DNA of 64,000 nucleotides from Actinomycetota bacterium (GTDB lineage: Bacteria; Actinomycetota; CALGFH01). Shown piece after piece: positions 808 to 43,960 of the stretch. Position 1 is the first letter of the stretch. Each line of letters opens with the position of its first letter. Position numbers and translations under genes: made by a program. Under the pieces are notes generated by a model, which saw only the letters and a program-made list of their open reading frames with translations, searched no databases and had not been told where the DNA came from. The DNA lies in the NCBI GenBank assembly GCA_040414855.1, contig JBEDUQ010000038.1, positions 38,749 to 102,748 of the forward strand. The letters are read 5' to 3'.

Positions 808-1028
808 CGCGGGGCGCGGGGCCGGCCGCGCGGTCCTGGGAGGGCGCGTCTGGAGTCGCGGTGCGGGGCGGGGCCCTTGCGGGCGCCGGCGCACGCGGAT
901 GTCCCCGATCACGGCCGAGCTTCGCCAGCCATGTCTGAGGAGATTGCGGGGTCACATCGAGGGGGAATCCACCATGATTCGGGCGTTGAACCGCGGCGCC
1001 GCCGGTAGATTCTCGAACTCGCGCATGA

Positions 1029-1046
1029 GGTTATCCACAGATTCCG
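1029..1046 (+). promoter_or_regulatory. 18-nt motif GGTTATCCACAGATTCCG, sense orientation, 128 nt upstream of the kgd start
   Basis: Direct read. One of four near-identical 18-mers in this window (see findings). Contains the DnaA-box nonamer TTATCCACA. Confidence 0.5.
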
Positions 1047-1173
1047 AGAACCCTCTCGGAGAGCTTGGAGCGAGGTGGCACACTGGTCCTGGAACGCCAT
1101 TCATGCTGGTAGGTCGCGATATGCGCCGGCCCGGCTGGCGTTCGAGCGCTTGACCGAGAGGTGTGGCAACGAG

Positions 1174-5369: not shown

Positions 5370-5559
5370 GCCAGGGCGGCAACCCGCGACCGCCCCACCC
5401 GACGGCTACGACGCCAATGCGGTTGGGCCGCCCGGACGAATCCAGACCTTCGACCATGGCGAGTGCGGCGCCGCTGTACGTGCCCGAAGCGGTGTGCTAT
5501 CTGTCGCGCGGAGCGTGCGGCCGCGCCGCTGAACACCATCGTTCCCGGAGGGCAAGCCG

Positions 5560-6921
5560 ATGGAGCTGGACGAGGTCCTGTCTGCGATCACGGCAGACGG
5601 CGTCGAGTTCGTCCGATTCGAGCAGACGGACCTGCACGGCATCTCGCGCTCGAAGACGATCCCGGCGAGGCACGTGGAGTCGTTCGCGCGCAACGGCCTC
5701 AACTTCCTGCTGGGGCAGCTCGGTTTCGACGAGCAGGCCGGGGTCGCTCCGGGCACCGGCTACCTCGAGGACCGCGGCTTCCCCGACTCGAAGCTGTTCC
5801 CAGACCCGGACACTTACGCGGTGCTGCCGTGGGCGGACTCGACGGCTCGGCTGATCTGCAATCCGCACTTCTTCGATGGCGCGCCAGCCGGCGCCTCGCC
5901 GCGGCTGGTGATGGGACGCCTGTGCGATGCCTTGGCCGACGAGGGCTACCACCATCTGTCCGGCTACGAGTACGAGCTGTACGTGGTCCGCGCGGAGGAC
6001 CGGCAGCCGCCGTTTCCGGGCATCCAGATCTTCGCCACCTTGCGCAACAGCTTCGACGAGGAGTTCGTCAACGACGTGCTTCGCTCGATGCCGGAGGTCG
6101 GCGTCGACATCATCACCTCCAACGCCGAATACGGCCCTGGCCAGATGGAGATCAATTTCGCGCCGGCGCTTGGCCTGACCGCCGCGGACCACGCGTTCAC
6201 CTTCAAGAACGGCATCAAGGAGATCGCCAGGCGCCACGGCTACATGGCATCGTTCATGACCAAGCCGTACGCCGACCAGAGCGCGAGCGGCTGCCACCTG
6301 CACGAGAGCCTCATCGAGGTCAGCAGCGGCCGCAATGCCTTCGCGAGCGACGACTCGACGCCGGGAGCGCTCGCCGAAGTCGGCCGCTGGTGGCTGGGCG
6401 GCCAGCTCACGCACCAGCCGGCGATGACCGCGTTCTTCGCGCCGACCGTCAACTGTGGCAAGCGCTTCAAGCAGTGGTCGTTCGCGCCGGTGAACGCGAC
6501 CTGGGCGCTGGAGAACCGCTCGGTCGCCATCCGCGTGAAGGGGCTTGCCGGCGCCGGGCTGCACACCGAGAACCGCGTGCCCTGCGGCGCCTCCAACCCC
6601 TACCTGGTCGGAGCCGCTGCGATCGCCGCCGGTCTGGACGGCATCCGCAACCACATCGAGCCACCGCCCGCGCTCGAAGGGCTCGCCTACGGCATCGACG
6701 GCCCGGGGCTGCTCCCCACCCGGCTGGAGGTCGCGCTCGACGCGCTGGAGAAGGACGCTGCCATGCGCGAGTTGCTCGGCGAGGAGCTGATCCGCCTGTT
6801 CCTCGCGGTCAAGCGTCACGAGATCGCCAAGGCCACCGAGCACGCTCTCGACTACACCGCCGCCGACTGGACCGACCGCGTGGACCCCTTCGAGGTCTCC
6901 GAGTTCTTCGAGTTTCTCTAG
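5560..6921 (+). CDS. Glutamine synthetase family protein (GlnA-like gamma-glutamyl ligase, substrate unknown)
   Basis: 453 aa. GS N-terminal beta-grasp (GVEFVRFEQTDLHGISRSK) and catalytic-domain motifs (GPGQMEINF, SGCHLHESL, NRSVAIRV, ENRVPCGASNPYL). GGAGGG precedes the ATG. Confidence 0.85.
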   Translation: MELDEVLSAITADGVEFVRFEQTDLHGISRSKTIPARHVESFARNGLNFLLGQLGFDEQAGVAPGTGYLEDRGFPDSKLFPDPDTYAVLPWADSTARLICNPHFFDGAPAGASPRLVMGRLCDALADEGYHHLSGYEYELYVVRAEDRQPPFPGIQIFATLRNSFDEEFVNDVLRSMPEVGVDIITSNAEYGPGQMEINFAPALGLTAADHAFTFKNGIKEIARRHGYMASFMTKPYADQSASGCHLHESLIEVSSGRNAFASDDSTPGALAEVGRWWLGGQLTHQPAMTAFFAPTVNCGKRFKQWSFAPVNATWALENRSVAIRVKGLAGAGLHTENRVPCGASNPYLVGAAAIAAGLDGIRNHIEPPPALEGLAYGIDGPGLLPTRLEVALDALEKDAAMRELLGEELIRLFLAVKRHEIAKATEHALDYTAADWTDRVDPFEVSEFFEFL

Positions 6922-8402: not shown

Positions 8403-8645
8403 CGCCGGTCGACGGCGGCATGCCTCTGTTGCCCATGATCAGAAGAACACAAGCGGGAATCAGGGTCCATGAGCGGGTCCATGGGCGGGTCCCGGCGGGG
8501 CGCGGCAGGAACGAGCGCCGTGCCGAGTCCGCGGTGTCCGACCCCACGCCCGCGTAGCCGCCGATGGCGCCGCGATCTCGATGGTGCGCCGGACTGCCGC
8601 GCCTGATAGGTTGCCCGGCCAGGGGCTGTGCGGGAGGCGTGGGCG

Positions 8646-10079
8646 ATGGCGAAGAAGAAGGGGCGGGACCAAGCCGGCGGACGATCCCAGGACGTGGTCG
8701 AGCGCGCGGCGGCCGAAGGGCTCGACCTGATCCGCTTCCTGTACGTGGACCACGGCGGCGTCATTCGCGGCAAGGCCACCTCCCGCTCGCGCCTACGCGA
8801 GCGGATGGAGACCGGCATCGGGCTGACGCTGGCGATGCAGGCGATGAGCATGCTGGACGAGCTGCAACCGGTCGCCGGCATGGGACCGGTCGGCGAGATC
8901 CGTCTGGTGCCTGACCCAGACTCGTTTGTCGTGCTTCCGTACGCGCCAGGCGCCGGCGCGATGGCGGCGGACATGCGCAAGCTCGACGGCGAGCCCTGGG
9001 AGGCGTGCCCGCGCTCGTTCCTGAAGGACGCGGTCGCCACCCTCGCCGGCCACGGCTACGCCCTGGTGGCGGCGTTCGAGCCGGAGTTCACGCTGGGCCG
9101 GCGCGAGCCGGCGCCGGACGGCGACCCTGACGCGGTCGACCGGCTGGTGCCGGTCGACGACAGCCTCTGCTTCTCGTCGACCGGGTTCGGCGCCGCCCAC
9201 GACTACGCCATCGAGCTGGTCAGGGCCCTGGAGGCGCAGGGGATGGTGGTCGAGCAGTACTACCCCGAGCTCGGCCACGGGCAGCAGGAGCTGTCGATCC
9301 GGCACGCGCCGGCGCTCCGCGCCGCCGACAACCACGTGCAGTACCGCGAGACGGCCCGCGGAGTCGCCTGGCGCCAGGGGCTTTGGGCGAGCCTCGCTCC
9401 CAAGCCGATCCCCGATCAGGCCGGCAACGGCACGCACCTGCACGCCTCGCTGTGGGAGCTCGACCCCGACGGTGGTCCCGGAGCGCCCGGCGCCCGCAAC
9501 CTCTTCTACGACGCCGACGACCGCAACGGGCTTTCCGATGTCGCCTACAACTTCATCGGCGGGCTGCTGGCGCACCTTCCCGCGCTGGTCGCGCTCACCT
9601 GCGGCAGCGTGAACAGCTACCGAAGGCTGGCTCCCGGGTCGTGGAGCAGCGCCTACACGTGCTATGGCATGGACAACCGCGAGGCCGCCGTCCGCATCGC
9701 CTCGCGGATGTGGGGTCTGGAGGAGGCCTCGGCCAACCTCGAGCTGAAGCCGTCCGACTCGACCGCCAACCCCTACCTCGCGCTCGGCGCCTACATCCAC
9801 GCCGGGCTCGACGGCATTCGCAACAAACTCGACCCGGGCGCGCCGACCGATGTCGACCCCGCCAAGCTGAGTGCGTCGACCCGCAGGCGCCGCGGGATCC
9901 GCCGGCTCCCCGACTCGCTCGGCGCCGCCCTTGACGCGCTGGAGCAGGACGAGCTGCTGATGGACGCCCTCGGGCCGCTGCGCCGGACCGCCTACCTGGC
10001 GGTCAAGCGCTCCGAGGTCGCCGCCTTCGCCCAGCACGACACCGCGTTCGAGTGCTTCCACCACTTCACGAAATTCTGA
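8646..10079 (+). CDS. Second glutamine synthetase family protein (GlnA-like paralogue)
   Basis: ORF 8628-10079. ATG 8646 sits 8 nt after GGGAGG, so it is preferred. Motifs: EPEFTL, ELGHGQQELSIRH, NGTHLHASLW, DNREAAVRI, ELKPSDSTANPYL. Confidence 0.85.
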   Translation: MAKKKGRDQAGGRSQDVVERAAAEGLDLIRFLYVDHGGVIRGKATSRSRLRERMETGIGLTLAMQAMSMLDELQPVAGMGPVGEIRLVPDPDSFVVLPYAPGAGAMAADMRKLDGEPWEACPRSFLKDAVATLAGHGYALVAAFEPEFTLGRREPAPDGDPDAVDRLVPVDDSLCFSSTGFGAAHDYAIELVRALEAQGMVVEQYYPELGHGQQELSIRHAPALRAADNHVQYRETARGVAWRQGLWASLAPKPIPDQAGNGTHLHASLWELDPDGGPGAPGARNLFYDADDRNGLSDVAYNFIGGLLAHLPALVALTCGSVNSYRRLAPGSWSSAYTCYGMDNREAAVRIASRMWGLEEASANLELKPSDSTANPYLALGAYIHAGLDGIRNKLDPGAPTDVDPAKLSASTRRRRGIRRLPDSLGAALDALEQDELLMDALGPLRRTAYLAVKRSEVAAFAQHDTAFECFHHFTKF

Positions 10080-20046: not shown

Positions 20047-20731
20047 CAACGAAGCGGTGGTGCTGGCGGTGCTCTCCGACCGCTACGGGCTGCCGATGGA
20101 CCGGCTGGTGCCGGGCGAGATCGCCGTCGCGGAGGTGCAGCACCCGAGCCTGCCCGTGCGGGCGTTCAGCCGGCAGGGCAGCGCGGTGCTCGCCGTGGCG
20201 CCGCAGCACGCGAACCTTCTGCGCAGCCGGCTGACCGACCCGGCGCACCTGCTGCCCGCGCTCGAGGAGGCCGCGGCCGCGCTGCGCGGGCACCTGTTCT
20301 CCGGGGTGGCCCGGACCGGCGTGGCGATCCCGCCGCCCGTCCACGAGGTGACCCTGCTCGACGCGTCGGACCCGCGCCTGCCCGACTGGGTGATCGGCCA
20401 TTTCACGGGCGAGGCGTGGGTGGTGCTCGACAGCGACGGGAGCGTGCTGTCGACCGCGGTGCTGAAGCGCTACGACGACCGCGTCCGCGAGATCTCGGTC
20501 GGCACGGCGGAGCGGGCCCGCGGGCGCAGCCTGGCCCGGTCGGTGGTCGCCGCCGCCGCCCGCGCGGTGCTGGCGCAGGGCCGCGCGGTCCTCTACAACC
20601 ACGCACCCGACAATTACGCGTCGGCGAAGGTCGCGGAGTCGGTCGGCCTGCACGAGTTCGGCCGCTACCACGCGATCGTGCCGGACCGCAGCATCGGAAT
20701 CGAGTACGGCAAGGACGACTCGACCCGCTAG
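20030..20731 (+). CDS. Putative GNAT-family N-acetyltransferase
   Basis: ORF 19898-20731 trimmed to ATG 20030 (17-nt overlap with the MFS stop). The C-terminal part, ISVGTAERARGRSLARSVVAAAARAVLAQGRAVLYNHAPDNYASAKVAESVGLHEFG, resembles the GNAT acetyl-CoA-binding core (R/Q-x-x-G-x-G/A). Confidence 0.6.
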   Translation: MLAPVDNEAVVLAVLSDRYGLPMDRLVPGEIAVAEVQHPSLPVRAFSRQGSAVLAVAPQHANLLRSRLTDPAHLLPALEEAAAALRGHLFSGVARTGVAIPPPVHEVTLLDASDPRLPDWVIGHFTGEAWVVLDSDGSVLSTAVLKRYDDRVREISVGTAERARGRSLARSVVAAAARAVLAQGRAVLYNHAPDNYASAKVAESVGLHEFGRYHAIVPDRSIGIEYGKDDSTR

Positions 20732-20806
20732 CCCTCCACCCCCGCCGCGGTCACAGCAGCCGTTCCGCTAGCGCTCCACCCGCGCCGCGGTCACAGCAGC
20801 CGTTCG
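20727..20806. repeat. 40-bp tandem duplication (37/40 identical) carrying both convergent stop codons
   Basis: Unit 1 (20727-20766): gctagccctccacccccgccgcggtcacagcagccgttcc. Unit 2 (20767-20806): gctagcgctccacccgcgccgcggtcacagcagccgttcg. The GNAT TAG (20729-20731) is in unit 1. The TGA of the TIR-NB-ARC-KAP gene (20791-20793, minus) is in unit 2. Confidence 0.95.
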
Positions 20807-23800
20807 GACGCCTTCGCGATCGACGGCTCCGAGGCGAGAAAGCCGCGGAGCTCCTCGACCCAGAGACGATCGGCGACGGAGGGCGCGCCCGCGGAGACCG
20901 CGCCGTCGGCCAGCCCAGCCGCGGCCAGCGCCTCCTCCCAGTTGTCGGGCTTCCCGGGCTTGCTGGGCTTGCTGGGCTTGCCGTTGGCCTCGGCGGCCTC
21001 CGCGGCGGTCGCATTAGCAGCCTGACTGGCAATCGCCCGGGCGTGTCGCTCCAGGTGGGCGAGCGCGCTGGGAGCGCCGTCGATCGCCAGGCGCGCGCCC
21101 AGCGCGTTGAGCAGGTGCGGCCAGCGGATCGCCAGTACCGCCAGCTTGGCGATCTCGGGACCGTCGGGCGCGAGCACCCCCCGCAGCCGGTCCTGCTGCG
21201 CCACGAAGGTGTAGAAGCGGAACAAATTGATGAATCGCTTGATCTCTCTGGGGTTGGCGGAGTCGAGCTTCGGCAGCGCCTCCTCGATCGCGTCGCGCGA
21301 GTCCGCGTCGCTGTAGAGCTCGACGAAGACGCGGTTGGCCGCCTCCAGCGCCTCGGGCAGCAGGACGCCGTCGGGCACCTCCCCGACGATCTGGGCCTGC
21401 GCGTCTCGCGCGGCCTGCGCCAGGTTCTCGGCGGTGGGCGTGCCGCTCCGGATCGCGTCCTCGATGCGCCGCACCAGGTCCATCCGCAGCCCCTCGCGCG
21501 CGAGGGGGACGCCGGTCCCCGCGTTCGACTCGACGACGCCTTGGGTCGCGGCCGCATTGTCGCCGCTGACGGCGGCCCGCGAATCCCCGGTGCCGCCCAG
21601 GCCCCCCGCGCCCGCCGCATCCCCCGCACCGCCCGCGCCCTCTTTGCCGCCTGCGCCCGCGCCGCCCGCGGCCCCCACCCCGCGCGGCCGCTTGCCGAGA
21701 CCCTCGTCCGGCTCAGGGCCCCCGGGACCGAGCAGCGAGTCGAGGTAGCGGTCGATGCCGCCGGAGCCGACCGGCAGCGGCAGGCTCAGCGGAAGCTGCA
21801 CGATCTTCTCCAGGAAGCGCCAGCCTAGCGACGACCTCCCGCCGTGCGGCTTGCCGCCGAGGCTGGTGACCAGTTCCTTGTAGGCGACCTCGACGTGCGC
21901 GGCCACCACCGCGGGCTCGACCGCGAGCACGAACACGCAGTTCGGGAACTCGCCGGCCAGGAACAGGTTGATCGCCTCGATCACCTGCGCGACCGTGCTG
22001 GGCGAGCAGCGGTCGAGGTCGTCGACGAACACCACCAGCGGCCGCCGCTCGGTCGCGACCAGGTCCAGCACCCGCTTCATGTCCGTCTGCACCAGGTACA
22101 GGAAGCCCAGCCGCGCCTGGTAGCCGGGGTCGCGCACGAGCTCGTCGAACGAGCCCCTCGCCTGCTCGTCGAGCAGCTTCCTGGTGCCGGTGAGGCTCGG
22201 CTCCCCCACCAGCCTGCGGAACTGGCCGGCGGCCTCCTCGCCGAAGAACCCCAGGCCGCGCCGGACGCCGTCGACCAGCGTGCCGAGCGTCCCCAGCGAC
22301 AGCAGCGTCGCCGTCAGCGGCCGCAGCACGTGCCTGGTATCCGGCAGCAGCCAGGCGACGATTCCCATCGCGGCCACCACCAGGATCGCGACGCCGAGGG
22401 TGAGCGCCAGCGGCAGGAAGCGCTCGGCCAGCAGGCGGTAGATCCGCCGCCGCACCGCCTGGCGGTCGACCCGGCGGAGGTTCAGCTCCAGCCAGAATCG
22501 CTCGCGGTCGCCCGGCTCCATGCGGCCGCTGACCTGGGTGATGATCTCGTGGGCGAGGCCCGCCCAGACCTGCTCGCCGCTCTGGTACATCCACGGGTTG
22601 AACCAGACGGTCGGGCGCCAGTCGCGCCGCTGGCCGAGCCGCTCGCTGGCCGGCGGCTCGACGCCGAGCGCCTCGAGGTCGGCCTCACTGGCCCCCGGTC
22701 CGCGGGTCGCGCGCCGCAGCAACTCCAGGACGGTCACCGGCTGCTCCGCCTGGCTCTGTCCCGATGCGGTGGCGCGCGAGCGGCCGCGCCTGCGCTCTGG
22801 GGCCGAGACGCTCAGCGGCCCGTCGTCGGCGAGCGAGCGGCGGGACCGGCCGCTCAGCCGGAGCCGCGTGGGCGTCCAGGTGGCCCGGTCGGAGGGCGGG
22901 TCGAGCCGCTCCTGGACCATCCGCATCAGCGAGGTCTTGCCGGCCCCCCAGGGGGCCTTGACCCCGATCGTCAGCGGCGGGCGGGTCTCCTGATGACGGA
23001 TGAACGAGGCGATGGCGTCGGCGTACTGCCCGTAGCCGAGGGTGTCGTCCGCGGTCCAGAAGTCCCGCGCGATCCGGGAGTCGGGCTCGTAATGACCGCG
23101 GATCGCCAGCCAGCGAAGGGCGCGCCTGAGCGCGGTGCGCCGGTCGTCGGCGCTCTCCTCCGCGTTCAGCCGTGCCTGCGCCAGGTCGCGCACCAGGTCC
23201 CGGACCCGGTAGCGACCCTCCCCAGTCGGTTCGGCGAGCTGCGCCTCGACCAGGCGTCCCAGGGTCGCCTCGGCGTCCTCCAGCGGGACGTCGACCAGGG
23301 TCGCCGCCAGGCCGACCTCGACCTCCGGGTCGAGCAGCAGCTCCATTCGCCGGAACAGCCGGCGGTCGGACCCGGCCAGGTCGTCGTAGACGCGCTCCAG
23401 CCCGGTTCCGAGGCGGGTGGCGCCCGACTCGCCGCTGGGGACCACGAACTGGGTCAGCACCGCGCCGACGTCCAGCTCGGGGTGCTCGCGCATCTGCAGC
23501 GCCAGCAGCGCCACCAGGATCGGCGCGCCTTCGAGCTGGCCGAGCGCCGCGGCGATCGCCTCGCGCTCGGCCTCGACCCGCTCGGCGCCGAGCTCCCATT
23601 CCAGCAGCAGCAGGGCCTGCACCTGCGTGAGGCGCTCCAGGTTGACGACCTTCGTCGCCCAGCCGGTCAGTACCTCCATGCCGTCAGGCTCGTGCCGGCC
23701 GGTGACCACCACCGCCGAGCCAGGTGCCGCCGGAAGCAGGTCGGTCACCCGGCCCAGATCGCTGACGGCGTCCATCACGACCAGGATCTGTCGCCCGGCG

Positions 23801-24477
23801 GTCAGTGTCCGGTACGCCTCGACCTGGACGTCCCGCGGCTCGAACAGCTCCGAGCGGGGCACCCCGAGCGCGTCCAGCAGCAGGCGGATCGGCTGCTCGG
23901 TGGGGCGCGTGCCGACGCTGCAGAACAGCCGGCCGTCCGGGTACCGGTCGCCGAGCCGGTGGGCGAGGTAGCGGGCCAGGCTGGTCTTGCCGATCCCCGG
24001 CGGGCCGGTGATCATCGCGGCGCGGCGTTCGGGGGTCGGCGGTTCGAGGAACTCGACCAGTTCGTCGAGCTCGTGGTCCCGGATCGGGCCCCGGAGCGAC
24101 TCCGGCGGCAGGTTCGACAACCCTGGCCGCATCCGTGCCAGCGTCAGCAGCAGCTCGAAGGCACGCTGGTCGCCGGGGCCGTCGTCGCCGGAGAAGCGGA
24201 CGATCGGCAGCGCCGAGGGGAGCGGCGGCACCCTCAGGTTGCCGACCAGCACCGCCACCTCGCGACCCGCTGTGCTTCCAAGCTCGGACAACACCTCGAG
24301 CGGCCAGCTACTGGACCGCACCATGATGTGCGTCACGCCGGCCGGGATGGACTCCGGCCGGACACCCTCGCTGCGGTGCACCATGATCCCCGACCGCTCC
24401 AGGCGCTCGACCAGAGCTTCAACCCACTCAGCGTCCTCGCGGACGTACGAGACGACGACCTCCGAGGCTGGGTCCAT
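20791..24477 (-). CDS. TIR_2-like / NB-ARC (STAND) ATPase / KAP-family transmembrane P-loop NTPase fusion protein, 1228 aa
   Basis: Single uninterrupted ORF.
- aa 5-110, TIR_2-like: VVVSYVREDAEWVEALVERLERSGIMV ... IMVRSSSWPLEVLSEL.
- aa ~135-460, NB-ARC: Walker A GPPGIGKT (158-165), Walker B ILVVMDAV (231-238), GSAVVVTGR, GAPILVAL, winged-helix GRYRVRDLVRDLA.
- aa ~475-1125, KAP NTPase: Walker A APWGAGKT (508-515), two hydrophobic helices (aa ~687-738) inserted in the NTPase, Walker B LVVFVDDLDRC (814-824), C-terminal PREIKRFINLFRF.
AAGGAAAG precedes the ATG. Confidence 0.85.
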   Translation of the reverse strand: MDPASEVVVSYVREDAEWVEALVERLERSGIMVHRSEGVRPESIPAGVTHIMVRSSSWPLEVLSELGSTAGREVAVLVGNLRVPPLPSALPIVRFSGDDGPGDQRAFELLLTLARMRPGLSNLPPESLRGPIRDHELDELVEFLEPPTPERRAAMITGPPGIGKTSLARYLAHRLGDRYPDGRLFCSVGTRPTEQPIRLLLDALGVPRSELFEPRDVQVEAYRTLTAGRQILVVMDAVSDLGRVTDLLPAAPGSAVVVTGRHEPDGMEVLTGWATKVVNLERLTQVQALLLLEWELGAERVEAEREAIAAALGQLEGAPILVALLALQMREHPELDVGAVLTQFVVPSGESGATRLGTGLERVYDDLAGSDRRLFRRMELLLDPEVEVGLAATLVDVPLEDAEATLGRLVEAQLAEPTGEGRYRVRDLVRDLAQARLNAEESADDRRTALRRALRWLAIRGHYEPDSRIARDFWTADDTLGYGQYADAIASFIRHQETRPPLTIGVKAPWGAGKTSLMRMVQERLDPPSDRATWTPTRLRLSGRSRRSLADDGPLSVSAPERRRGRSRATASGQSQAEQPVTVLELLRRATRGPGASEADLEALGVEPPASERLGQRRDWRPTVWFNPWMYQSGEQVWAGLAHEIITQVSGRMEPGDRERFWLELNLRRVDRQAVRRRIYRLLAERFLPLALTLGVAILVVAAMGIVAWLLPDTRHVLRPLTATLLSLGTLGTLVDGVRRGLGFFGEEAAGQFRRLVGEPSLTGTRKLLDEQARGSFDELVRDPGYQARLGFLYLVQTDMKRVLDLVATERRPLVVFVDDLDRCSPSTVAQVIEAINLFLAGEFPNCVFVLAVEPAVVAAHVEVAYKELVTSLGGKPHGGRSSLGWRFLEKIVQLPLSLPLPVGSGGIDRYLDSLLGPGGPEPDEGLGKRPRGVGAAGGAGAGGKEGAGGAGDAAGAGGLGGTGDSRAAVSGDNAAATQGVVESNAGTGVPLAREGLRMDLVRRIEDAIRSGTPTAENLAQAARDAQAQIVGEVPDGVLLPEALEAANRVFVELYSDADSRDAIEEALPKLDSANPREIKRFINLFRFYTFVAQQDRLRGVLAPDGPEIAKLAVLAIRWPHLLNALGARLAIDGAPSALAHLERHARAIASQAANATAAEAAEANGKPSKPSKPGKPDNWEEALAAAGLADGAVSAGAPSVADRLWVEELRGFLASEPSIAKASERLL

Positions 24478-24553
24478 TTGCTTTCCTTGGGGCGGCGGGC
24501 GGGTTCGCTGGCTGGAGTGAATGCAAACAGAACGGGATGGTCAAGACCTGTTG

Positions 24554-24689
24554 TGCTACTCTCCGCCTCGCAGAGGTTCAACGTTTGGCTTCGCAGCCCG
24601 CAGTCGAGCTTGTCCCTTGCCGTCAACGGCAGAGGTTGCCGTGACGTTGTACGACACCTCCAAGTTGAGGGAGGGAGGGACAAAGCATC
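24554..24689 (+). promoter_or_regulatory. Putative cspA promoter (extended -10 TGcTACTCT at 24554-24562) and long 5' UTR
   Basis: A TGnTAnnnT-type element read at 24554-24562. About 120 nt of leader ends in the GAGGGAGGGAGGGA RBS. Long structured 5' UTRs are usual for cold-shock genes. Confidence 0.4.
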
Positions 24690-24896
24690 ATGACCGTTGG
24701 AACCGTCAAGTGGTTCAACTCCGAGAAGGGTTACGGATTCATCCGGCCGCCCGAGGGCGAGGATGTGTTCGTGCACTTCAGCGCCATCCAGTCGAGCGGA
24801 TACCGAACCCTTGAGGAGGGCCAGACCGTCGAGTTCGAGGTCACCCAGGGCCCCAAGGGCCCTCAGGCCGCCAACGTTCGCGCCGTTACGGAGTAG
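24690..24896 (+). CDS. cspA: Cold-shock protein (CspA family)
   Basis: 68 aa: [33 protein letters not shown], with RNP1 (KGYGFI) and RNP2 (VFVHF) motifs. Confidence 0.95.
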
Positions 24897-24993: not shown

Positions 24994-25617
24994 TCAGGCC
25001 GGCTCGGCGGTCCAGTCCTCGGCGAGCGCCTCGGAGGGCGGCGGGCGCCCGGGCCCGTCGCCATTGGCGGCGGCCTCGACCAGGTCGACCGCCTCCTCGG
25101 AAGTGGCGGCCACCACGAACAGCGAGCCCTCGCCCTCCCGCGCGAACCCCTGTCCGGTGATCTCCCGCACCATCGCCAGGAACGGGTCCCAGAAGCCGTT
25201 GACGTTGACCAGCACGATCGGGCGGTCGTGGAGGTTGAGCTGCCGCAGGGTCAGCACCTCGAGCAGCTCCTCCATGGTCCCGAAGCCGCCGGGCAGCGCC
25301 ACGAAGGCGTCGGCCCGGTTGTCCATCTCGGCTTTGCGCTCGCGAAGTGTCTCGGTCACCACCAGCTCGTCGGCGGGACCGTAGGCCAGCTCGCGCTCGA
25401 CCAGGGAGCGCGGGATCGCCCCGAAGACCTCGCCGCCGGCGTCGTGGACCGAGGCGGCGACCTCGCGCATCAGGCCGACGTTGCCGCCGCCGTAGACCAG
25501 GCGGTGGCCGCGCCGGCCGATCTCCTTGCCGAGCAGGCGCGCGCTCTCGAGGTAGACCTCGTCGAGGCCGGACGCCGAGGCACAGAACACGCAGATCGAC
25601 AGCCGCGCATCGCTCAC
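24994..25617 (-). CDS. LOG-family (TIGR00730-type) nucleotide 5'-monophosphate phosphoribohydrolase
   Basis: 207 aa: LVYGGGNVGLMREVA and the PGGFGTMEEL motif. Its GTG start overlaps the pepR stop (GTGA). Confidence 0.9.
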   Translation of the reverse strand: MSDARLSICVFCASASGLDEVYLESARLLGKEIGRRGHRLVYGGGNVGLMREVAASVHDAGGEVFGAIPRSLVERELAYGPADELVVTETLRERKAEMDNRADAFVALPGGFGTMEELLEVLTLRQLNLHDRPIVLVNVNGFWDPFLAMVREITGQGFAREGEGSLFVVAATSEEAVDLVEAAANGDGPGRPPPSEALAEDWTAEPA

Positions 25618-26882
25618 GTGACGTACCGCTCGAAGCCTTCCTCGTCGAACGGGCCGATCACCGCGAGCGAGCGCGGTCCGGTGCCGAGGATCTCCTTGGC
25701 AACGGCGCGGACGTCGTGGTCGCTGACCTCGTCGACCCGGCGGACGATCTCGTCGATCGAGAGGATCTCGCCGCTGGTCAGCTCGGACTTGCCGAGCCGC
25801 GACATGCGGCCCGAGGTGTCCTCGAGCCCGAGCACCAGCGAGCCCTTGAGGTGGCCCTTGCCCCGCTCCAGCTCCTCCTCGGTGAGACCGTCGGCGATCA
25901 CCCGGTCGAGCTCCTCGCTGACGATCGAGAGCACCTCGTGGACCCGCTTGGGCGCGGTGCCCGCATAGATCGAGAACGACCCGGTCTCGGTGTATTGCGT
26001 CGCATACGAGTAGATCGAGTAGACCAGCCCGCGCTGCTCCCTGACCTCCTGGAACAGCCGCGAGCTCATGCCGCCGCCGAAGGCGATGTTGAGCACGCCG
26101 AGCGCGAAGCGGCGCGGGTCCGACCGGGACAGCCCGCGGGTCCCGAGCACCACGTGGGCCTGCTCGGTGGGCTTGTGCCGCACCTGAACGCCGCCGTAGA
26201 TGCGGGGCTCCTTGCGTGCCGCCGCCGGCTCGAGCCGGCCGCCCTCGGCGCCGTCGAACGCGGCGCCGACCAGCTCGACGACCTCGTCGTGCGAGCAGTT
26301 CCCGGCCGCCGCGACCACCAGGTTGCCGGGCACGTAGTGGCGCCTCCAGTAGCGCGCCACGGCGTCGCGGCTCATGCCGGTGATCGAGTCGACCGTGCCG
26401 AGCACGGGCCTGCCGAGCGGATGGCCGCCGAGCAGTACCTCCGCGAACAGGTCGTGGACGATGTCGTCGGGCGCGTCGTTGTGCATCCCGATCTCTTCGA
26501 GGATGACCGTGCGCTCGGCCTCGACGTCGGCCTTGGCGATCTTGGAGTCGCGCAGCATGTCGACCAGCACGTCCACCGCCAGCGGCAGGTCGCGGTCGAG
26601 CGTCCGCGCGTAGAAGCAGGTGTACTCCTTGGCGGTGAAGGCGTTGGTCTCACCGCCGACCGCGTCCATCACCTCGGCGATGTCCCTGGCCGTCCGGCGC
26701 TTGGTGCCCTTGAACAGCAGATGCTCGAGGTAATGCGAAGCGCCGGCCAGGCGTGGGGTCTCGTCGCGAGACCCCACGCCGGTCCAGATCCCGAGCGCGG
26801 CCGAGCGGACCGTCGGCATGCGCTCCGTCAGGATCCGCAGGCCGCTCGGCAGCTCGGTGCGCTCGTAGGTGCCGGTCTCCAT
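25614..26882 (-). CDS. pepR: M16-family zinc peptidase (PepR-like)
   Basis: 422 aa with the inverted zinc motif HYLEHLLFKGT (HxxEH). Sits directly downstream of pnp, as in other actinobacteria. Confidence 0.9.
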   Translation of the reverse strand: METGTYERTELPSGLRILTERMPTVRSAALGIWTGVGSRDETPRLAGASHYLEHLLFKGTKRRTARDIAEVMDAVGGETNAFTAKEYTCFYARTLDRDLPLAVDVLVDMLRDSKIAKADVEAERTVILEEIGMHNDAPDDIVHDLFAEVLLGGHPLGRPVLGTVDSITGMSRDAVARYWRRHYVPGNLVVAAAGNCSHDEVVELVGAAFDGAEGGRLEPAAARKEPRIYGGVQVRHKPTEQAHVVLGTRGLSRSDPRRFALGVLNIAFGGGMSSRLFQEVREQRGLVYSIYSYATQYTETGSFSIYAGTAPKRVHEVLSIVSEELDRVIADGLTEEELERGKGHLKGSLVLGLEDTSGRMSRLGKSELTSGEILSIDEIVRRVDEVSDHDVRAVAKEILGTGPRSLAVIGPFDEEGFERYVT

Positions 26883-26886
26883 CCGC

Positions 26887-29109
26887 TCAGCGGCCTCCGT
26901 CGTCGTCGCCGCCCTCGCCGGAGGCGCTGGACGCCGCGGTCTGGGTGGTCTCGCCCTGGTCCTCGTCGGCCAGCTTCAGCGAGATGCGACCCTGACGGTC
27001 GACCTCGGTGACCTCGACGAGCACCTTGTCGCCGACGTTGACCACGTCCTCGACCGCGCGCACCCGCTGGCCCTTCTTGCCCAGCTTGGAGATGTGCAGC
27101 AGGCCGTCCTTGCCCGGTGTGAGCGACACGAAGGCGCCGAAGGTGGTGGTCTTGACGACCGTGCCGAGGTAGCGCTCGCCGACCTGCGGCATGACCGGGT
27201 TCATCTGCTCCCGGATCATGCGCAGCGCGGTCTCGAGCTGCTGGCCGTCGGTGGCGCCGATGAACACGCGCCCGTCGTCCTCGATCGAGATCTCGGCGCC
27301 CGAGGTGGACTGGATCTCGTTGATCCGCTTGCCCTTGGGGCCGATCAGCTCGCCGATCTTGGCGACCGGGATCTGCTCGATGTGGACCCGCGGGGCGAGC
27401 ATCGAGATCTGGTCGCGCGGGTGGTCGATCGCCTGCTGGATCACGTCGAGGATCACCATGCGGGCGTCGCGCGCCTGGGTCAGCGCGTTGATCAGGACCT
27501 CGCTCGGGATGCCGGTGAGCTTGGTGTCGAGCTGGAGCGCGGTGACGAACTCACGGGTGCCCGCTACCTTGAAGTCCATGTCGCCGTAGGCATCCTCGGC
27601 GCCGAGGATGTCGGTCAGGGTGACGTACTCACCACCCTCGGCGACCAGCCCCATGGCGATGCCACCGACCGGCGCCTTGATCGGCACGCCCGAGTCCATC
27701 AGCGACAGCGTCGACGCGCAGACCGAGGCCATCGAGGTCGAGCCGTTGGACGACAGCACCTCGCTGACCAGCCGCAGCGTGTAGGGGAAGTCCTCGCGGG
27801 AGGGGATCACCGGCAGCAGCGCCCGCTCGGCGAGCGCGCCGTGACCGATCTCGCGGCGCTTGGGGCCGCGCATGAACCCGGTCTCGCCGGTCGAGAACGG
27901 TGGGAAGTTGTAGTGGTGGATGTAGCGCTTGCGGTCCTCGGGGTCGAGCGTGTCGATGATCTGCTCCATGCGGACCATGCCCAGGGTGGTGATGTTCAGC
28001 ACCTGGGTCTCGCCCCGCTGGAACAGCCCCGAGCCGTGGGCGCGGGGCAGGATGCCGACCTCGGCGGACAGCGGGCGGATGTCGCGCGGGCCGCGCCCGT
28101 CGATCCGCTTGCTCTCCTTGACGATGCGCTGGCGCACCAGCTCCTTGGTCAGCGACCGGAACGCGGCCGGGAGCTCGCGCTCGCGCCCGGCGATCGCCTC
28201 GCCCAGCTCCTCGGTGACCCGCTCGACGGTCTCGGCCTTGAGCTCGTCGAGCAGCGCCTCACGCTCGGCCTTGTCGGCGATGGTGATCGCCTCGCGGACC
28301 CGCTCCTCGGCCACCCGGCGGACGGCCTCGGCGACCTCGTCGCCGTACTCGGAGAACAGCGGGAACTCGCGCTGCTGGCTGCCGGCCTGGCGGAGCAGCT
28401 CGCGCTGGAGCTCGCAGGCGGTGGCGATGTGCGGCTTGGCCAGCTCGAGCGCGAGGCCGATAGCCTCCTCGCTCGGCTTGGGAGCGCCGTCCTCCATCAG
28501 GCGGATGGCGTTCTCGGTCGCCTCGGCCTCGACCATGAGGATGTCGACCGAGCCGGCGTCGTTCTGCCGGCCGGCGACGACCATATCGAAGCTGCACTCT
28601 TCCAGCTCCTGGAAGGTGGGGTTGACGATCCACTCGCCGCCGCGGCGGCCGAGGCGGACGCCCCCGACCGGCCCGGAGAACGGGATCCCCGCCAGCATCA
28701 CAGCCATGGAGGCGCCGTTGATCGACAGCACGTCGGGGTTGTTCTCCATGTCGGCGGAGACGATCGTCGCGATCACGTGGATCTCGTTGCGGAGGCCCTT
28801 GGGGAACGACGGCCGCAGGGGCCGGTCCACGAGCCTGGCCGTGAGGATGGCGGTCTCGGATGGACGCCCCTCACGACGGAAGAAACCGCCGGGGATCTTG
28901 CCGGCGGCATACATTCGCTCCTCGATGTCGACCGTGAGCGGGAAGAAGTCGAGCTGCTCCTTCGGGGACTTTCCCGCGGTCGCGGTCACCAGGACCTGGG
29001 TCTCGCCGATTCCGACGATGACCGCGCCGCCGGCCTGATTTGCCAGCTTGCCGGTCTCGAAATACATCTCACGATTGCCGACGGAACCTTGAATACGATG
29101 AACTGCCAT
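26887..29109 (-). CDS. pnp: Polyribonucleotide nucleotidyltransferase (PNPase)
   Basis: 740 aa with two RNase PH domains, KH ([19 protein letters not shown]) and S1 ([20 protein letters not shown]) domains. Confidence 0.97.
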
Positions 29110-39223: not shown

Positions 39224-39493
39224 TCACCGCACGCCGACGAGGACCAGCACCTCCCCATGCCCGATTCCGCACTGCTCCAACGATCGCCCGACCGGCAGCG
39301 GCAGGGCGCCCAGCGGCGCCAGGCCGAGCGGCTTTCGAGCTCCTGGGTCGATCGGCGGCGCCGCGCCGGGTCCGGCGGGATCGCGGAGGAGCTCGGCGAT
39401 CGGTTCGAGGAGGTCGGCGATCGGGACGTCGGCGCGCACGGCGAGGTCACGGCGGCGCTTTCCCACCACCACCGTGATCAGGAGGGTGGTCAT
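39224..39493 (-). CDS. YukD/EsaB-like ubiquitin-fold protein (also resembles the EccD N-terminal domain)
   Basis: 89 aa from ATG 39493, which overlaps the eccC-like TGA (ATGA): MTTLLITVVVGKRRRDLAVRADVPIADLLEPIAELL...SLEQCGIGHGEVLVLVGVR. The pattern (beta-strand start, 'D..vP.d.pv..Li', C-terminal 'GI.dGevLvL') is that of T7SS ubiquitin-like components. Confidence 0.7.
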   Translation of the reverse strand: MTTLLITVVVGKRRRDLAVRADVPIADLLEPIAELLRDPAGPGAAPPIDPGARKPLGLAPLGALPLPVGRSLEQCGIGHGEVLVLVGVR

Positions 39494-42400
39494 CCGGACG
39501 CGTCGGCGGTGGCCGGTTCGTTGCTGGACCGGTGGTCGGGTGGCGGTTCGTTGCTGGACCGGTGGTCGGGTGGCGGTGCGTTGCTGGACCGCTGGTCGGG
39601 TGTGGCCCGGGGTCGTAGGGCCGGTGTCCAGGCCACCTGGACCAGGCCCGACCGCCCGTGGCGGCGGACGAGGTAGCCCCGGCCCGGTGGCTGTGGCGCG
39701 GCGGCGCGGCCCCCGAGCAGCTCTCCCTCGCGCGGGTCGCCCGACATGATCAGCCCGGGACCGCCACGCTCGCGGATCCGTTGGAAGAACGGCTCGAACG
39801 AGGTTCGCGCCGAGCCGCTGACGGGGCGGGCGAGCAGGACGTGCAAGCCGACGTCCCGGCCACGGCCGAGCAGGTCGATCAGCGGCTCCAGCGGGTTGCC
39901 CGCGACCGGCGCCACCAGGTCGTAGTCGTCGACCACCAGCACGTGACGCGGTTCGTGCCGCATGCCCGGCGCCGGTGCGCCGCGGTCGAGGCGGACATCG
40001 AGCGACGAGCGCAGCCGGCGGATGCCGTCGAACACCAATGCGGGTGAGTCCAGGTAGGCCCTGCACTGGGGCAGGTCGGTGAGGTCGGCCAGCGTGCGCC
40101 GGTAGTCGACCACGATCAGCCGCAGCTCGTCGGTGCTGTAACGGGCAGCCAGACCGGTGGCCAGGCACCGCAGCGTCGAGGTCTTCCCGCACTCGGCATC
40201 GCCGAGCACGAGAAAGTGCGGCGCTGACCACAGATCGAGGGTCACGACGTCGAGGCGGTGGTCGTGCAGCGCGAATGGCACTCCCCCGCTCGCTTCCAGC
40301 TCGGGACAGGCGGCCGCCCGCCGGAGAAGGTCGTCGATCGGCACCAGCGTAGGCAGCCGTCGCAGCCGCGGAGCGATCGCGCCCGTCGGGCTCCGCAGGA
40401 CATGCCGGAGGAGCGCTTCGGCCGCCACCGGAATCGCGCCACCGTCGCCGCCAAGGACGGTGCCGGGGCCAACCGTCTCGTCACGGCTCGCGCCAGCCCG
40501 GGCCACGGCCGGCAGGGCGGTCTGGAACTGGTGACCGTTGGCGGAGAGCCCCCGTCCCGGGGTGCGAGATGGCAGGCGGGCAGCGGCCGCGCGGCCGACC
40601 TGCGATTCGAACGGGTCGTTGAGGTGGAGCTCCAGCCGGCCGCCGAGGTTGTCCAGGAGCCCGAGCCGGAGGTCGGCCCACCGGTTGGCGGCGATCACCA
40701 GGTGCACGCCGTGGTGCAGCCCAACCGCCGCGAGCGCTTCGATCTCGTGATCGAGGTCGGGAAGCTCCTGCCGGAGCCTGGCCCAGTTGTCGACGACCAG
40801 GAACACATCGCCGTACCCGTCCTGGCCCAGCGCGGGCTGGTGGCGGCGGCGGGCATGCCACTCCGCCATCGACGCGATCCTCTCTTCGCGGAACTGCTGG
40901 TCTCGCTCGGCGACGACCGTGCGCAGCTCGCGGACCAGCCGTCTGGCCTCGTCGGGGTCGTGGACGCCCGCCACGGCTCCGACGTGCGGCAGGTCGCCCA
41001 GCCGGTGCAGCAGTCCCCCGCCGAGGTCGATGCAGTACAGCTGCACATCGTCCGGAGCGTGGGTAAGGGCGAGGGCAGCCACCAGCGTGGCCAGTAGCGT
41101 GCTCTTGCCACTCCGCGGCGCGCCGGCGATCGCCAGGTGACCTCGCCGACCGGTGAAGTCCAGCTCCAGCGGGTGCTGCGACTGTGTGAACGGCTCGTCC
41201 ACGATGCCGACCGGCACTCGCAGCCAGCCCGGGTCGCCGGGACGCCGGGCGTGCCGCGGCGAGCCGGCGGAACCCACGTGATCCCGCGGACCCGGCGGAC
41301 CCGGCGGACCCTGGAGACCCCGCGGACCTGGTGGCCCTAGCGGACCCGGCGGACCCGGTGGACCCGCCGGACCGGCCGCTCCGCGGCAGCGCTGGAGCAC
41401 CTCGTCGAGGGTGATCACCCGCGCGAGGGGCGGCAGCCAGACGCGGTGCGCGCGCGATTCGGTGGCCGCACGGGCCGCGGCGGAGAGCGCGGCCAACTCC
41501 TCGGCGGCCGCCGCGGCCGTGGGCACGTCGGGCATGGCGGGGAGGACGTCGTCGCGTGGCAAGGCGATCGGCTCGAAGGGCACGACCAGCGGCACCGGGT
41601 CGCCGGGCGTGGCCCGCGGGCCCGCGTGAGATGGCGTGAACCCGCCGGCGACCACGAGACCCTGGAACGGCACGCAGGGACCGTCGTCGACCCGGAGCAG
41701 ACCGTGGCCGGGAGACGCCGGGAGATGGAACGCGTCGGCTGTGCCGAGCACGGCGGTGGACTCGGCCGCGCTGAAGGTGCGAAGGCAGATCCGGTAGCGG
41801 AGATGGCTCTCCAAGCCGCGGAGACGGCCCTCGTCTAGGCGCTGCGACGCGAGCAGCAGGTGGATCCCCAGGCTGCGGCCGGTCCGGCCGATCGCGGTGA
41901 AGAGGTCGAGGAACTCCGGATGGGCGGCGAGCAGCTCGCCGAACTCGTCGACGACCACCAGCAGGCTCGGCAGCGGCTCGAGGCGTCCGGTCGCCGCCCG
42001 TCTTCGGTGCGCGGCGATGCTGTCGAGGTTCGCCTCCCGGAGCAGGCGCTGCCTGCGGTCGACCTCGCCGAAGAGGGCGCTCCGGGCGCGCTCCACCATG
42101 CTGGGATCGTCCTGGAGGTTGGTGATCAGGCCGGCGGTGTGGGGCAGGCCGGCCAGCGGTGCGAACGCTGCCCCGCCCTTGAAGTCGACCAGCGCGAACG
42201 AGAGCCGCTCGAGCGGGTGGGTCAACGCGAGCCCGACGACGATCGTGCGCAGCAGCTCGCTCTTCCCCGACCCGGTGGCGCCGATGAGCAGGCCGTGCGG
42301 GCCCATGCCGCCCTCAGAGGCCTCCTCGAGGTCGAGGACGACACCGGCATCCACGCCAGCATCGACGACGGCCGGGGCCGCGAGGCCACCGGAAGGCGCG

Positions 42401-43875: not shown

Positions 43876-43960
43876 GCGGCGAGCACCGAGGGGGTCGAAA
43901 GGATGTGCGAACCTCGGGCCTCGACGCTAATGGCGCGCCAGCCCGGCGGAAAGCCCACCT

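Follow-up and report, generated by a model that had tools for sequence, protein, structure and literature searches.

Fusion proteins that carry a KAP-family NTPase guard Enterococcus faecalis against phages, with a requirement for the Walker B motif (PMC13552941), and PifA, a KAP member without transmembrane helices, causes membrane depolarisation upon T7 infection (PMC13001434). Tmn, which detects a phage protein and increases ATP turnover, is placed by its authors in the YobI family and not in KAP (PMC13001434), and in the conflict systems predicted for multicellular bacteria the place of the STAND NTPase may be taken by a KAP ATPase (PMC8195603). We have analysed a 64 000-nucleotide stretch of DNA from an Actinomycetota bacterium (GenBank assembly GCA_040414855.1, contig JBEDUQ010000038.1, positions 38 749 to 102 748), hereafter the window, to which all coordinates refer, and in which a single gene, hereafter the fusion gene, encodes a TIR-like domain, an NB-ARC module and a KAP NTPase in this order. 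The product is most like a STAND/NLR protein with a KAP NTPase substituted for the repeat sensor. A first-pass annotation of the window, made by a model, had drawn attention to this gene; it had also cited Tmn as a KAP NTPase, which does not agree with the affiliation given by the authors of Tmn.

Organisation of the fusion gene

The fusion gene occupies positions 20791-24477 of the reverse strand as one open reading frame (ORF) of 1228 amino acids (aa) without interruption, according to the ORF list and the translation, and its ATG start agrees with that of the orthologues in the alignment. The coding signal is strong: GC content is 0.93 at third codon positions (GC3), which is similar to the adjoining genes, and 0.51 at second positions (GC2), and the overall GC content is 73.4% as compared to 71.3% for the window. 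The parts of the gene are given below, with the evidence for each (AF2, AlphaFold2; pLDDT, predicted local distance difference test; NBD, nucleotide-binding domain).

20791..24477, reverse strand: whole fusion gene, 1228 codons plus the stop TGA (20791-20793); ORF list, translation, GC3 and a start matching the orthologues
24130..24465, reverse strand: reduced TIR-like domain, aa 5-116, holding W58, E61 and E65, with five strands and three helices; family profile and AF2 model
23098..24081, reverse strand: NB-ARC module, aa 133-460; Pfam, NCBIfam AfsR, PDB AfsR and Foldseek
aa 133-290: NBD, with Walker A at 158-165, Walker B at 231-238 (including A237) and sensor-1 R261
aa 291-355: ARC1, with GxP at 317-319
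aa 356-460: ARC2 winged helix, with YRVRD at 423-427 replacing the MHD motif
21763..23052, reverse strand: KAP P-loop NTPase core, aa 476-905, with Walker A at 508-515 (K514) and Walker B at 814-824 (key residues D819, D820, D822 and R823); Pfam, motifs and substitution rates
22240..22464, reverse strand: helical hairpin inserted in the KAP P-loop domain, aa 672-746, predicted membrane anchor; hydropathy and AF2
21508..21762, reverse strand: Gly/Ala-rich disordered insert, aa 906-990; pLDDT below 50, composition and identity
21088..21507, reverse strand: KAP C-terminal helical region, aa 991-1130, with the NPREIKRFxN signature (1075-1088); motif, invariant residues and helical model
20794..21087, reverse strand: C-terminal tail, aa 1131-1228, variable save for the last ~25 residues (...LRGFLASEPSIAKASERLL)

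These data bear out the first-pass annotation as to the single intact 1228-aa ORF and the order of its modules, TIR-like, NB-ARC and KAP, which is real. Likewise, a position check of the translation found each motif it had quoted at the residue numbers that it had given:

aa 7-33: VVVSYVRED...
aa 55-65: SSSWPLEVLSE (E61, E65)
aa 158-165: GPPGIGKT (K164)
aa 231-238: ILVVMDAV
aa 253-261: GSAVVVTGR
aa 317-324: GAPILVAL
aa 508-515: APWGAGKT (K514)
aa 814-824: LVVFVDDLDRC
aa 1076-1088: PREIKRFINLFRF

Comparison with described systems

By its sequence and motifs, the fusion protein is a member of both the KAP family and the NB-ARC class. With STAND/NLR proteins (AfsR, RPP1, Roq1, Apaf-1/CED-4, Avs and bNACHT) it shares the order of an effector-type N-terminus followed by NBD, ARC1 and ARC2, as well as the P-loop lysine, the sensor-1 arginine and the GxP motif, and its modelled conformation is that of a resting NLR. 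It departs from them in that a predicted membrane-anchored KAP NTPase stands where the repeat sensor would be, that other residues have taken the place of the second Walker B acid and the MHD histidine and, as regards AfsR, that the SARP DNA-binding domain and the TPRs are absent. A C-terminal TPR, LRR or WD40 repeat sensor is typical of the STAND class without strictly defining it. No Pfam match to such repeats was found on the C-terminal side of the NB-ARC module, where the last 760 residues constitute the KAP module; relatives of the TIR-NB-ARC-TPR type do occur in actinomycetes (P0060, P0066).

Features in common with the KAP family (PF07693; PifA, EF_KAP and fusions from gut metagenomes) are the Pfam match, Walker A, Walker B and the NPRxxKRxxN signature, together with helices inserted in the NTPase domain and fusion to other modules. 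However, the KAP defence proteins tested so far possess unknown C-terminal regions (PMC13552941), whereas a variable N-terminal module and then a complete NB-ARC NTPase are found here; furthermore, PifA is devoid of transmembrane helices. The conflict systems described by Kaur, Burroughs, Iyer and Aravind (PMC7159879, PMC8195603) obey the same logic, i.e. variable effectors (TIR, caspase, trypsin) coupled to a regulatory NTPase, and they are enriched in actinobacteria. But in those systems KAP comes in place of STAND, while the fusion protein has both in tandem within one polypeptide, an arrangement of which no mention was found in the conflict-system papers of the Aravind group. The genes directly adjoining it in the window are ordinary ones, no search having been aimed at effector-associated adaptor domains or at multi-gene loci. 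More generally, we found no publication on the NB-ARC-KAP tandem, or on KAP, NB-ARC, TIR and NTPase together, an early mention in the 2004 KAP-family paper being possible; public annotation names the family members 'P-loop NTPase fold protein' or gives the three Pfam names.

Tmn is reminiscent of the fusion protein by its own features, namely a P-loop NTPase with two transmembrane helices inside the NTPase domain, membrane-anchored, antiviral and encoded by a single gene, but it belongs to another family and has neither accessory domains nor NB-ARC or TIR. The best PADLOC/NCBIfam similarity of the KAP part is to QatA (1.8e-26), but the score, 114 bits, lies far below the equivalog cut-off (600), with partial matches only; besides, no family suggestive of the Qat partners (QueC-like, TatD-like, QatB) occurs among the scanned neighbours at 11.9-29.9 kb. 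Two other partial matches were obtained with PADLOC, to PifA (73 bits, best stretch aa 476-531) and PDC-S20 (51 bits, aa 804-866), and its models for Avs, bNACHT and Tmn did not match the protein. Membership in Qat, Tmn, Avs, bNACHT or PifA was therefore ruled out, all scores being partial or absent and Tmn being of the YobI family. The earlier statement that no named system could be matched stands, given that PADLOC and NCBIfam yield only sub-threshold similarity to QatA, PifA and PDC-S20.

The KAP NTPase and its hairpin

At the level of sequence, the identity of the KAP NTPase is certain: Pfam KAP_NTPase matches aa 482-901 with 104.5 bits against a cut-off of 20 (8e-30), over positions 1-227 of a 293-position profile. 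We take the feature set of the family to consist of Walker A (GxxGxGK[ST]), Walker B (hhhhDDLDR) and the C-terminal NPRxxKRxxN, and all three were found, as APWGAGKT (508-515), LVVFVDDLDRC (814-824) and NPREIKRFIN (1075-1084). Conservation of motifs was scored over 51 relatives that have the NB-ARC-KAP tandem, and in these the residues of the two Walker motifs and of the NPREIKRFIN signature (P1076, R1077, K1080, R1081 and N1084) are invariant. The proposal that the gene contains a KAP NTPase was correct.

The same can be said, as a prediction, of the paired helices that had been proposed between the Walker motifs. Hydropathy reveals a hydrophobic helix at 687-711 (Kyte-Doolittle value, KD, of 2.65) and a weaker one at 721-738, and the AF2 model of aa 120-1228, made from a 51-sequence alignment (pLDDT 78.9), has two long antiparallel helices at 672-710 and 712-746 (553-591 and 593-627 in model numbering). 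Because both halves of the P-loop domain must then lie on one side of the membrane, with a loop of a few residues between the helices, we infer from the model that the hairpin is a membrane anchor rather than an external sensor. The insert that follows the core contains 28 glycines and 15 alanines in 85 residues, has a pairwise identity of 0.29 and is disordered at 917-990 in the AF2 model; pairwise identity in the alignment is 0.45 for the C-terminal tail. No solved KAP structure detectably related to the protein came out of the sequence search, and Foldseek with the whole model was dominated by NB-ARC matches.

The NB-ARC module

Sequence and model agree in making the NB-ARC identity of the middle module certain. 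Pfam NB-ARC scores 26.9 bits for a cut-off of 23.5, and NCBIfam AfsR matches the module at 3e-31; the best relative of solved structure is AfsR (8k60, 9e-27), followed by the plant TIR-NLR RPP1 (7crb). Foldseek on the model retrieves NRC2 at 3e-10, with Apaf-1 (1z6t) and CED-4 within 1e-10 to 1e-8, and also the NB-ARC of NRC1 (TMt 0.69), ZAR1, Roq1 and RPP1. The modelled module superposes with a root-mean-square deviation of 4.6-4.8 Å only on NLRs in the resting or ADP-bound state (8xuo, 1z6t, 8bv0), and does not fit resistosome states (15-17 Å).

The P-loop lysine (K164), the sensor-1 arginine (R261) and GxP are conserved among the tandem relatives. To this extent the module is intact, as had been claimed, but the lineage of the window has A237 and R426 at two other positions that matter, the second Walker B acid and the MHD histidine. 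Judging from these residues, the module probably binds nucleotides, and a normal hydrolysis cycle is doubtful. Similarly, the idea of two apparently functional NTPase switches can be retained for KAP, with its invariant motifs, but not as it stands for an NB-ARC deprived of both residues.

The TIR-like N-terminus

The N-terminal domain is a TIR homologue, although this can be recognised at the level of the family profile only. For the single sequence, Pfam TIR_2 remains below threshold (19.5 bits, cut-off 28) and covers residues 7-34 only, while several orthologues have a precomputed PF13676 match. A profile built from 14 N-termini of the family and run against solved structures matches PdTIR (3h16, 1.6e-7), AbTIR (7uwg, 1e-6) and 8g83 (2e-6), as well as BtpA, RPV1 and Roq1. 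The domain appears reduced: about 9 residues are missing after strand B in the profile alignments with PdTIR and AbTIR, and in the AF2 model (pLDDT 77.8) the five strands are accompanied by no more than three helices. With this model Foldseek gave no match at E <= 1e-3; TMq values to TIRs are 0.55-0.59, and flavodoxins and receiver domains score at the same level. The TIR assignment of the first-pass annotation thus holds by way of the family profile, not by Pfam or by structural comparison.

Its designation of E61 or E65 as candidate catalytic glutamate of an SxWxxxE motif is not supported. The window protein reads W58-P-L-E61-V-L-S-E65, i.e. with glutamates at W+3 and W+7, and position W+4, which is the catalytic glutamate of AbTIR and PdTIR, is a valine here and an alanine in the family consensus. 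Among the orthologues, the canonical W-x-x-x-E with a glutamate at W+4 exists only in P0006 and P0016; the three closest sequences (P0001-P0003) have an acidic residue at W+3 (E, D and E), P0010 and P0013 are without a glutamate, P0004 has lost the tryptophan and an internal deletion in P0005 removes the catalytic segment altogether.

Selection acting on the modules

Ratios of nonsynonymous to synonymous substitution rates (dN/dS) were calculated with NG86 on codon alignments to two orthologues, the neighbouring genes for polynucleotide phosphorylase (PNPase) and the M16 peptidase being used as controls. Extreme GC3 compresses dS, and indels make the alignment of the TIR-like part less certain, which should be kept in mind for the following values (first / second orthologue):

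TIR-like part: 0.74 / 0.87, near neutral
NB-ARC: 0.26 / 0.64
KAP core: 0.19 / 0.27
linker: 1.05 / 0.46
KAP C-terminal region: 0.24 / 0.24
neighbour controls: PNPase 0.20, M16 0.15

Given these caveats, the conserved machinery consists of KAP, then NB-ARC, and the supposed effector is nearly unconstrained. A conserved NADase is therefore unlikely, the TIR-like domain being both reduced and almost free of constraint. The earlier view of TIR as the output of the protein is hard to reconcile with three helices, about 9 missing residues, a dN/dS of 0.74-0.87 and the loss of the segment in one orthologue. As a separate observation, dS of the fusion gene against the orthologue at locus L081 is 0.39, as compared to 0.14 for PNPase and 0.20 for M16 in the same genome pair (25614-29109); this two- to threefold higher value is probably an effect of codon bias or of expression.

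Distribution of the architecture

A search with the full-length protein revealed about 19 clusters with the same three-part order, mostly metagenomic but including Couchioplanes caeruleus (46% identity), and beyond them only AfsR-type NB-ARC matches. The KAP part alone recovers at least 1307 proteins at E <= 1e-10. In species-representative genomes, 247 loci of the KAP clade were found, and the 80 that were kept are all from Actinomycetota. Among the N-terminal partners met with in this clade are TIR_2 with or without NB-ARC, NB-ARC alone (Actinomadura, Streptomyces, Actinoallomurus), Trypsin_2, caspase, kumamolisin/subtilase, phospholipase C and NYN, as well as peptidoglycan-binding modules, HTH, GNAT and protein kinase. 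Other TIR-bearing members of the clade have a different TIR_2 subtype, which shows that the N-terminus has been swapped repeatedly.

The forms that bear NB-ARC are scattered over most of the distance tree of the KAP core. A profile was searched exhaustively against 1.84 billion representatives at 50% identity; in about 22 of the best 150, a single alignment stretch runs from the NBD into KAP, and in some 20 more the match begins at the ARC2 winged helix. Sub-domain hidden Markov models likewise found an ARC2-like segment directly before KAP, without an NBD, in 17 of the 80 genome loci. Many KAP proteins of the clade are of this ARC2-only type, including those of L005, L007, L009, L012, L046 and about 12 loci of Sphaerisporangium and Streptosporangium, an example being a Trypsin_2-ARC2-KAP protein of Nocardia. 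The ARC2-only forms suggest either loss of the NBD or that ARC2 and KAP behave as a unit. We conclude that the NB-ARC-KAP tandem recurs in the clade and is probably an old architecture. It is not unique, since it is found in dozens of clusters, including those of the cultured genera Couchioplanes, Actinomadura, Actinoallomurus and Streptomyces.

When the genes around the 80 loci were clustered, no operon partner common to all came out, the only synteny being lineage-specific and confined to Streptosporangiaceae. There, a group of paralogues (L010-L074, about 40 loci) has a conserved N-terminus of about 450-600 aa without Pfam match, and a conserved neighbourhood comprising Dps-like ferritin, MarR-GNAT, VIT-VWA, MerR, lactonase, PFK and ThiI genes.

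The locus and its occupants

The fusion gene is inserted among housekeeping genes, in the order rpsO, pnp, M16 peptidase, LOG, cspA, fusion gene, GNAT, MFS and dapB. The PNPase of the window is 81-96% identical to metagenomic proteins and at most 70% identical to those that come next, which places the organism in an uncultured lineage of Actinomycetes. Orthologues of 84%, 76% and 62% identity keep the slot between LOG/cspA and GNAT/dapB, and across these loci the fusion gene has diverged in step with the genes on either side, which indicates vertical descent. Allelic replacement or balancing selection at the locus was ruled out, the divergence of the gene scaling with that of its neighbours. 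A host-like GC content had been taken to mean that the gene is not a recent acquisition, and the base composition together with the orthologues at the same locus agrees with this.

On the other hand, the gene is absent from all six relatives that were sampled solely by their PNPase identity (83-91%), where the slot is variously filled:

L088: cspA-GNAT-MFS with a 165-bp gap
L087: a four-gene set of HATPase_c (histidine-kinase-like ATPase), Roadblock/LC7, DUF742 and ATP_bind_1 GTPase, which we take to resemble an actinobacterial conservon
L089: a Mo-oxidoreductase
L091: nothing
L090 and L092: a DUF6290-Fic pair, presumably similar to a toxin-antitoxin module

For L088, the identities of the neighbouring genes favour loss over the gene never having been gained; the shared upstream sequence is uninformative on this question, because it also serves cspA. 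Frameshifted alleles exist as well. P0017 is split within the Gly/Ala linker into ORFs of 983 and 216 aa (L083 10001-13599, L084 3127-6725), this split allele occurs in two different metagenome samples, and the C-terminus of P0018 is similarly shifted. The slot between the core genes pnp/M16 and dapB is thus variable, and the fusion gene is accessory there, some branches having kept it for a long time and others having lost it.

In the window, the fusion gene is divergent from cspA (24690-24896, forward strand) and convergent with the GNAT gene, which ends at 20731; these neighbour positions agree with the monocistronic layout described earlier. Two features flank it:

24478..24689, no strand: divergent intergenic region of 212 bp common to the fusion gene and cspA; alignment
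20725..20805, no strand: 40-bp tandem duplication, two copies with 95% matches, covering the stops of the convergent GNAT and fusion genes

The intergenic region is kept at orthologous loci, and also in one relative that does not have the fusion gene. A consensus scan of its 212 bp found no sigma-70-like promoter, and nothing exceeded shuffled expectation in the promoter and terminator scan. The duplication (2.0 copies) includes the GNAT stop TAG (20729-20731) and, in its second copy, the last codons and the stop (TCA, 20791-20793) of the fusion gene; only 1-10 bp separate the two convergent genes at orthologous loci.

Further from the locus, the reverse strand at 39490-43926 encodes a 1478-aa protein with three FtsK/SpoIIIE ATPase stretches, similar to the type VII secretion ATPase EccC. 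This gene sits between the nusA-infB cluster and ispG, and a YukD-like gene is found nearby in the related contigs L088 and L090. At 1009-4938, the forward strand encodes a 1309-aa fused 2-oxoglutarate dehydrogenase, with an E2-type acyltransferase joined to E1 as in actinobacterial OdhA/Kgd, and two glutamine synthetase genes come after it (5533-6921 and 8610-10079).

Possible function

At this point we lean, with some hesitation, towards the view that the fusion protein is an accessory, membrane-tethered, NLR-like conflict switch, serving immunity or programmed death through an output other than NADase. The KAP domain would be anchored on the cytoplasmic side of the membrane by the hairpin between its Walker A and B motifs and, with the C-terminal helical region, would occupy the sensor position in which STAND proteins carry TPR, LRR or WD40 repeats. 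In the resting protein the NB-ARC module would be closed, like that of ADP-bound NLRs, until a membrane-proximal event or a protein acts as trigger on the KAP module or on the C-terminal helical region. An NTP-dependent rearrangement in KAP could then license oligomerisation via NB-ARC, so that the N-terminal domains cluster, the membrane hairpins are perturbed, or both. In the lineage of the window, the output might be scaffolding by the TIR-like domain or an assembly of KAP and hairpin that acts on the membrane, to be compared with PifA (PMC13001434); on our analysis, either seems more likely than a conserved NADase. Each of these elements, taken separately, is backed by published precedent (PMC8195603, PMC13552941, PMC13001434).

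Several observations weigh against such a switch. The immune or death role of the fusion protein and its close relatives is a prediction from sequence and model, and an abortive-infection role is pure inference. The lineage of the window has A237 where 33 of the 51 tandem relatives keep the second Walker B aspartate, and R426 at the position of the MHD histidine, which is present in 21 of them; because NB-ARC is devoid of both residues, a canonical ADP/ATP cycle is uncertain. The second helix of the hairpin (721-738) is weakly hydrophobic. As judged by sequence, the nearest relatives of the NB-ARC module are the AfsR/SARP proteins, which are transcription regulators and not immune proteins. 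The first-pass annotation had proposed to look for an association with defence islands; no defence gene was found among the scanned neighbours (11.9-29.9 kb of the window), and PADLOC gave only sporadic matches over 122 neighbour ORFs of 16 diverse loci, a scan made with no control set. No copy was found in phages, and none of the tandem on plasmids in the collections searched; carriage by mobile elements was rejected, the plasmid matches being AfsR-type NB-ARC genes and one Rhizobium KAP only. Finally, a physiological role would also be compatible with the long stay of the gene at one place on the chromosome and with the strong purifying selection on KAP.

Such a role, for instance that of a non-immune, membrane-associated signalling or regulatory ATPase concerned with envelope or cold stress, development or control of the neighbouring transporter, and with an AfsR-like NB-ARC and a KAP scaffold ATPase as its components, is in our opinion rather unlikely, although more than one trait of the family speaks for it. 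The AfsR/SARP kinship and the lack of defence context in the window and in the 16-locus scan point in this direction, as do the pairing with cspA and the GNAT-MFS adjacency, kept in five of the five loci that carry the gene, the divergence that follows the neighbours with no sign of allelic replacement, the Streptosporangiaceae paralogues set among ordinary genes and the HTH, kinase or GNAT N-termini of some clade members. However, the dominant N-termini of the clade are death or effector domains (caspase, trypsin, subtilase, phospholipase C, NYN and TIR), and the gene is dispensable, since the six PNPase-sampled relatives do without it and one allele is frameshifted. Moreover, cspA, GNAT and MFS persist without it in L088, which argues against any obligate functional coupling, and the slot is elsewhere taken by the DUF6290-Fic pair. 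The gene might also be a decaying relic, with an ORF kept by chance or by very recent relaxation and no present function; near neutrality of the TIR-like domain and linker, the deletion in P0005, the frameshifts in P0017 and P0018, the loss from L088 and the changed catalytic residues of NB-ARC could be quoted in its favour. We consider this very improbable in view of a 3.7-kb ORF that is intact with a GC3 of 0.93, of purifying selection on KAP and NB-ARC comparable to that on housekeeping neighbours, of invariant KAP motifs and of intact orthologues at the same locus down to 58-62% identity.

The reading of the first-pass annotation would be a two-step, NTP-gated abortive-infection sensor with an active TIR output, i.e. 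NAD+ cleavage or synthesis of a signal with E61 or E65 as the catalytic residue. The matches of the family profile to the catalytic bacterial TIRs PdTIR, AbTIR and BtpA are consistent with it, and so are the acidic W+3 of P0001-P0003, the canonical motif of P0006 and P0016 and the TIR-NB-ARC-TPR relatives P0060 and P0066; plant TIR-NLRs (7crb, RPP1) further demonstrate that clustering of TIRs driven by NB-ARC can switch on a NADase. But the domain that should do this here falls under the Pfam cut-off with a match limited to residues 7-34, lacks the stretch after strand B, is modelled with three helices and resembles flavodoxins and receiver domains as much as TIRs, with no Foldseek match at E <= 1e-3. 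Its catalytic position is an alanine in the consensus and has lost the glutamate in P0010 and P0013, the tryptophan is gone in P0004 and the segment in P0005, and dN/dS is near neutral (0.74-0.87). An active TIR output is, for these reasons, improbable.

Implications

The conflict switch that we favour for the fusion protein can be extended to a bolder proposal, which we regard as possible but doubtful, namely that the NB-ARC-KAP tandem defines a new class of bacterial NLR-like receptors in which a membrane-integral KAP replaces the repeat sensor. A gate made of two NTPases would read an event close to the membrane, for instance phage entry or damage to the envelope, and drive swappable death domains (TIR, caspase, trypsin, phospholipase C or NYN); the class would go back to the ancestor of a large actinobacterial clade and, in certain lineages, have stayed for long at a chromosomal hotspot. 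In the copy of the window, judging by its sequence, TIR is degraded and NB-ARC is altered. A TIR label on the fusion gene would mislead automated annotation, since it is NB-ARC and KAP that make up the conserved machinery. The family also offers a natural series, effector-NB-ARC-KAP, effector-ARC2-KAP and effector-KAP, in which the need for each part could be examined. If its members are related to immunity or death, bacterial NLR-like immunity would be extended by a membrane-anchored branch. An NTPase would then itself occupy the sensor position, so that the order of the nucleotide steps could be tested through the two P-loops (K164 and K514), and KAP NTPases, whose anti-phage action had long been predicted and was shown only lately, would gain a defined place in STAND-type signalling.

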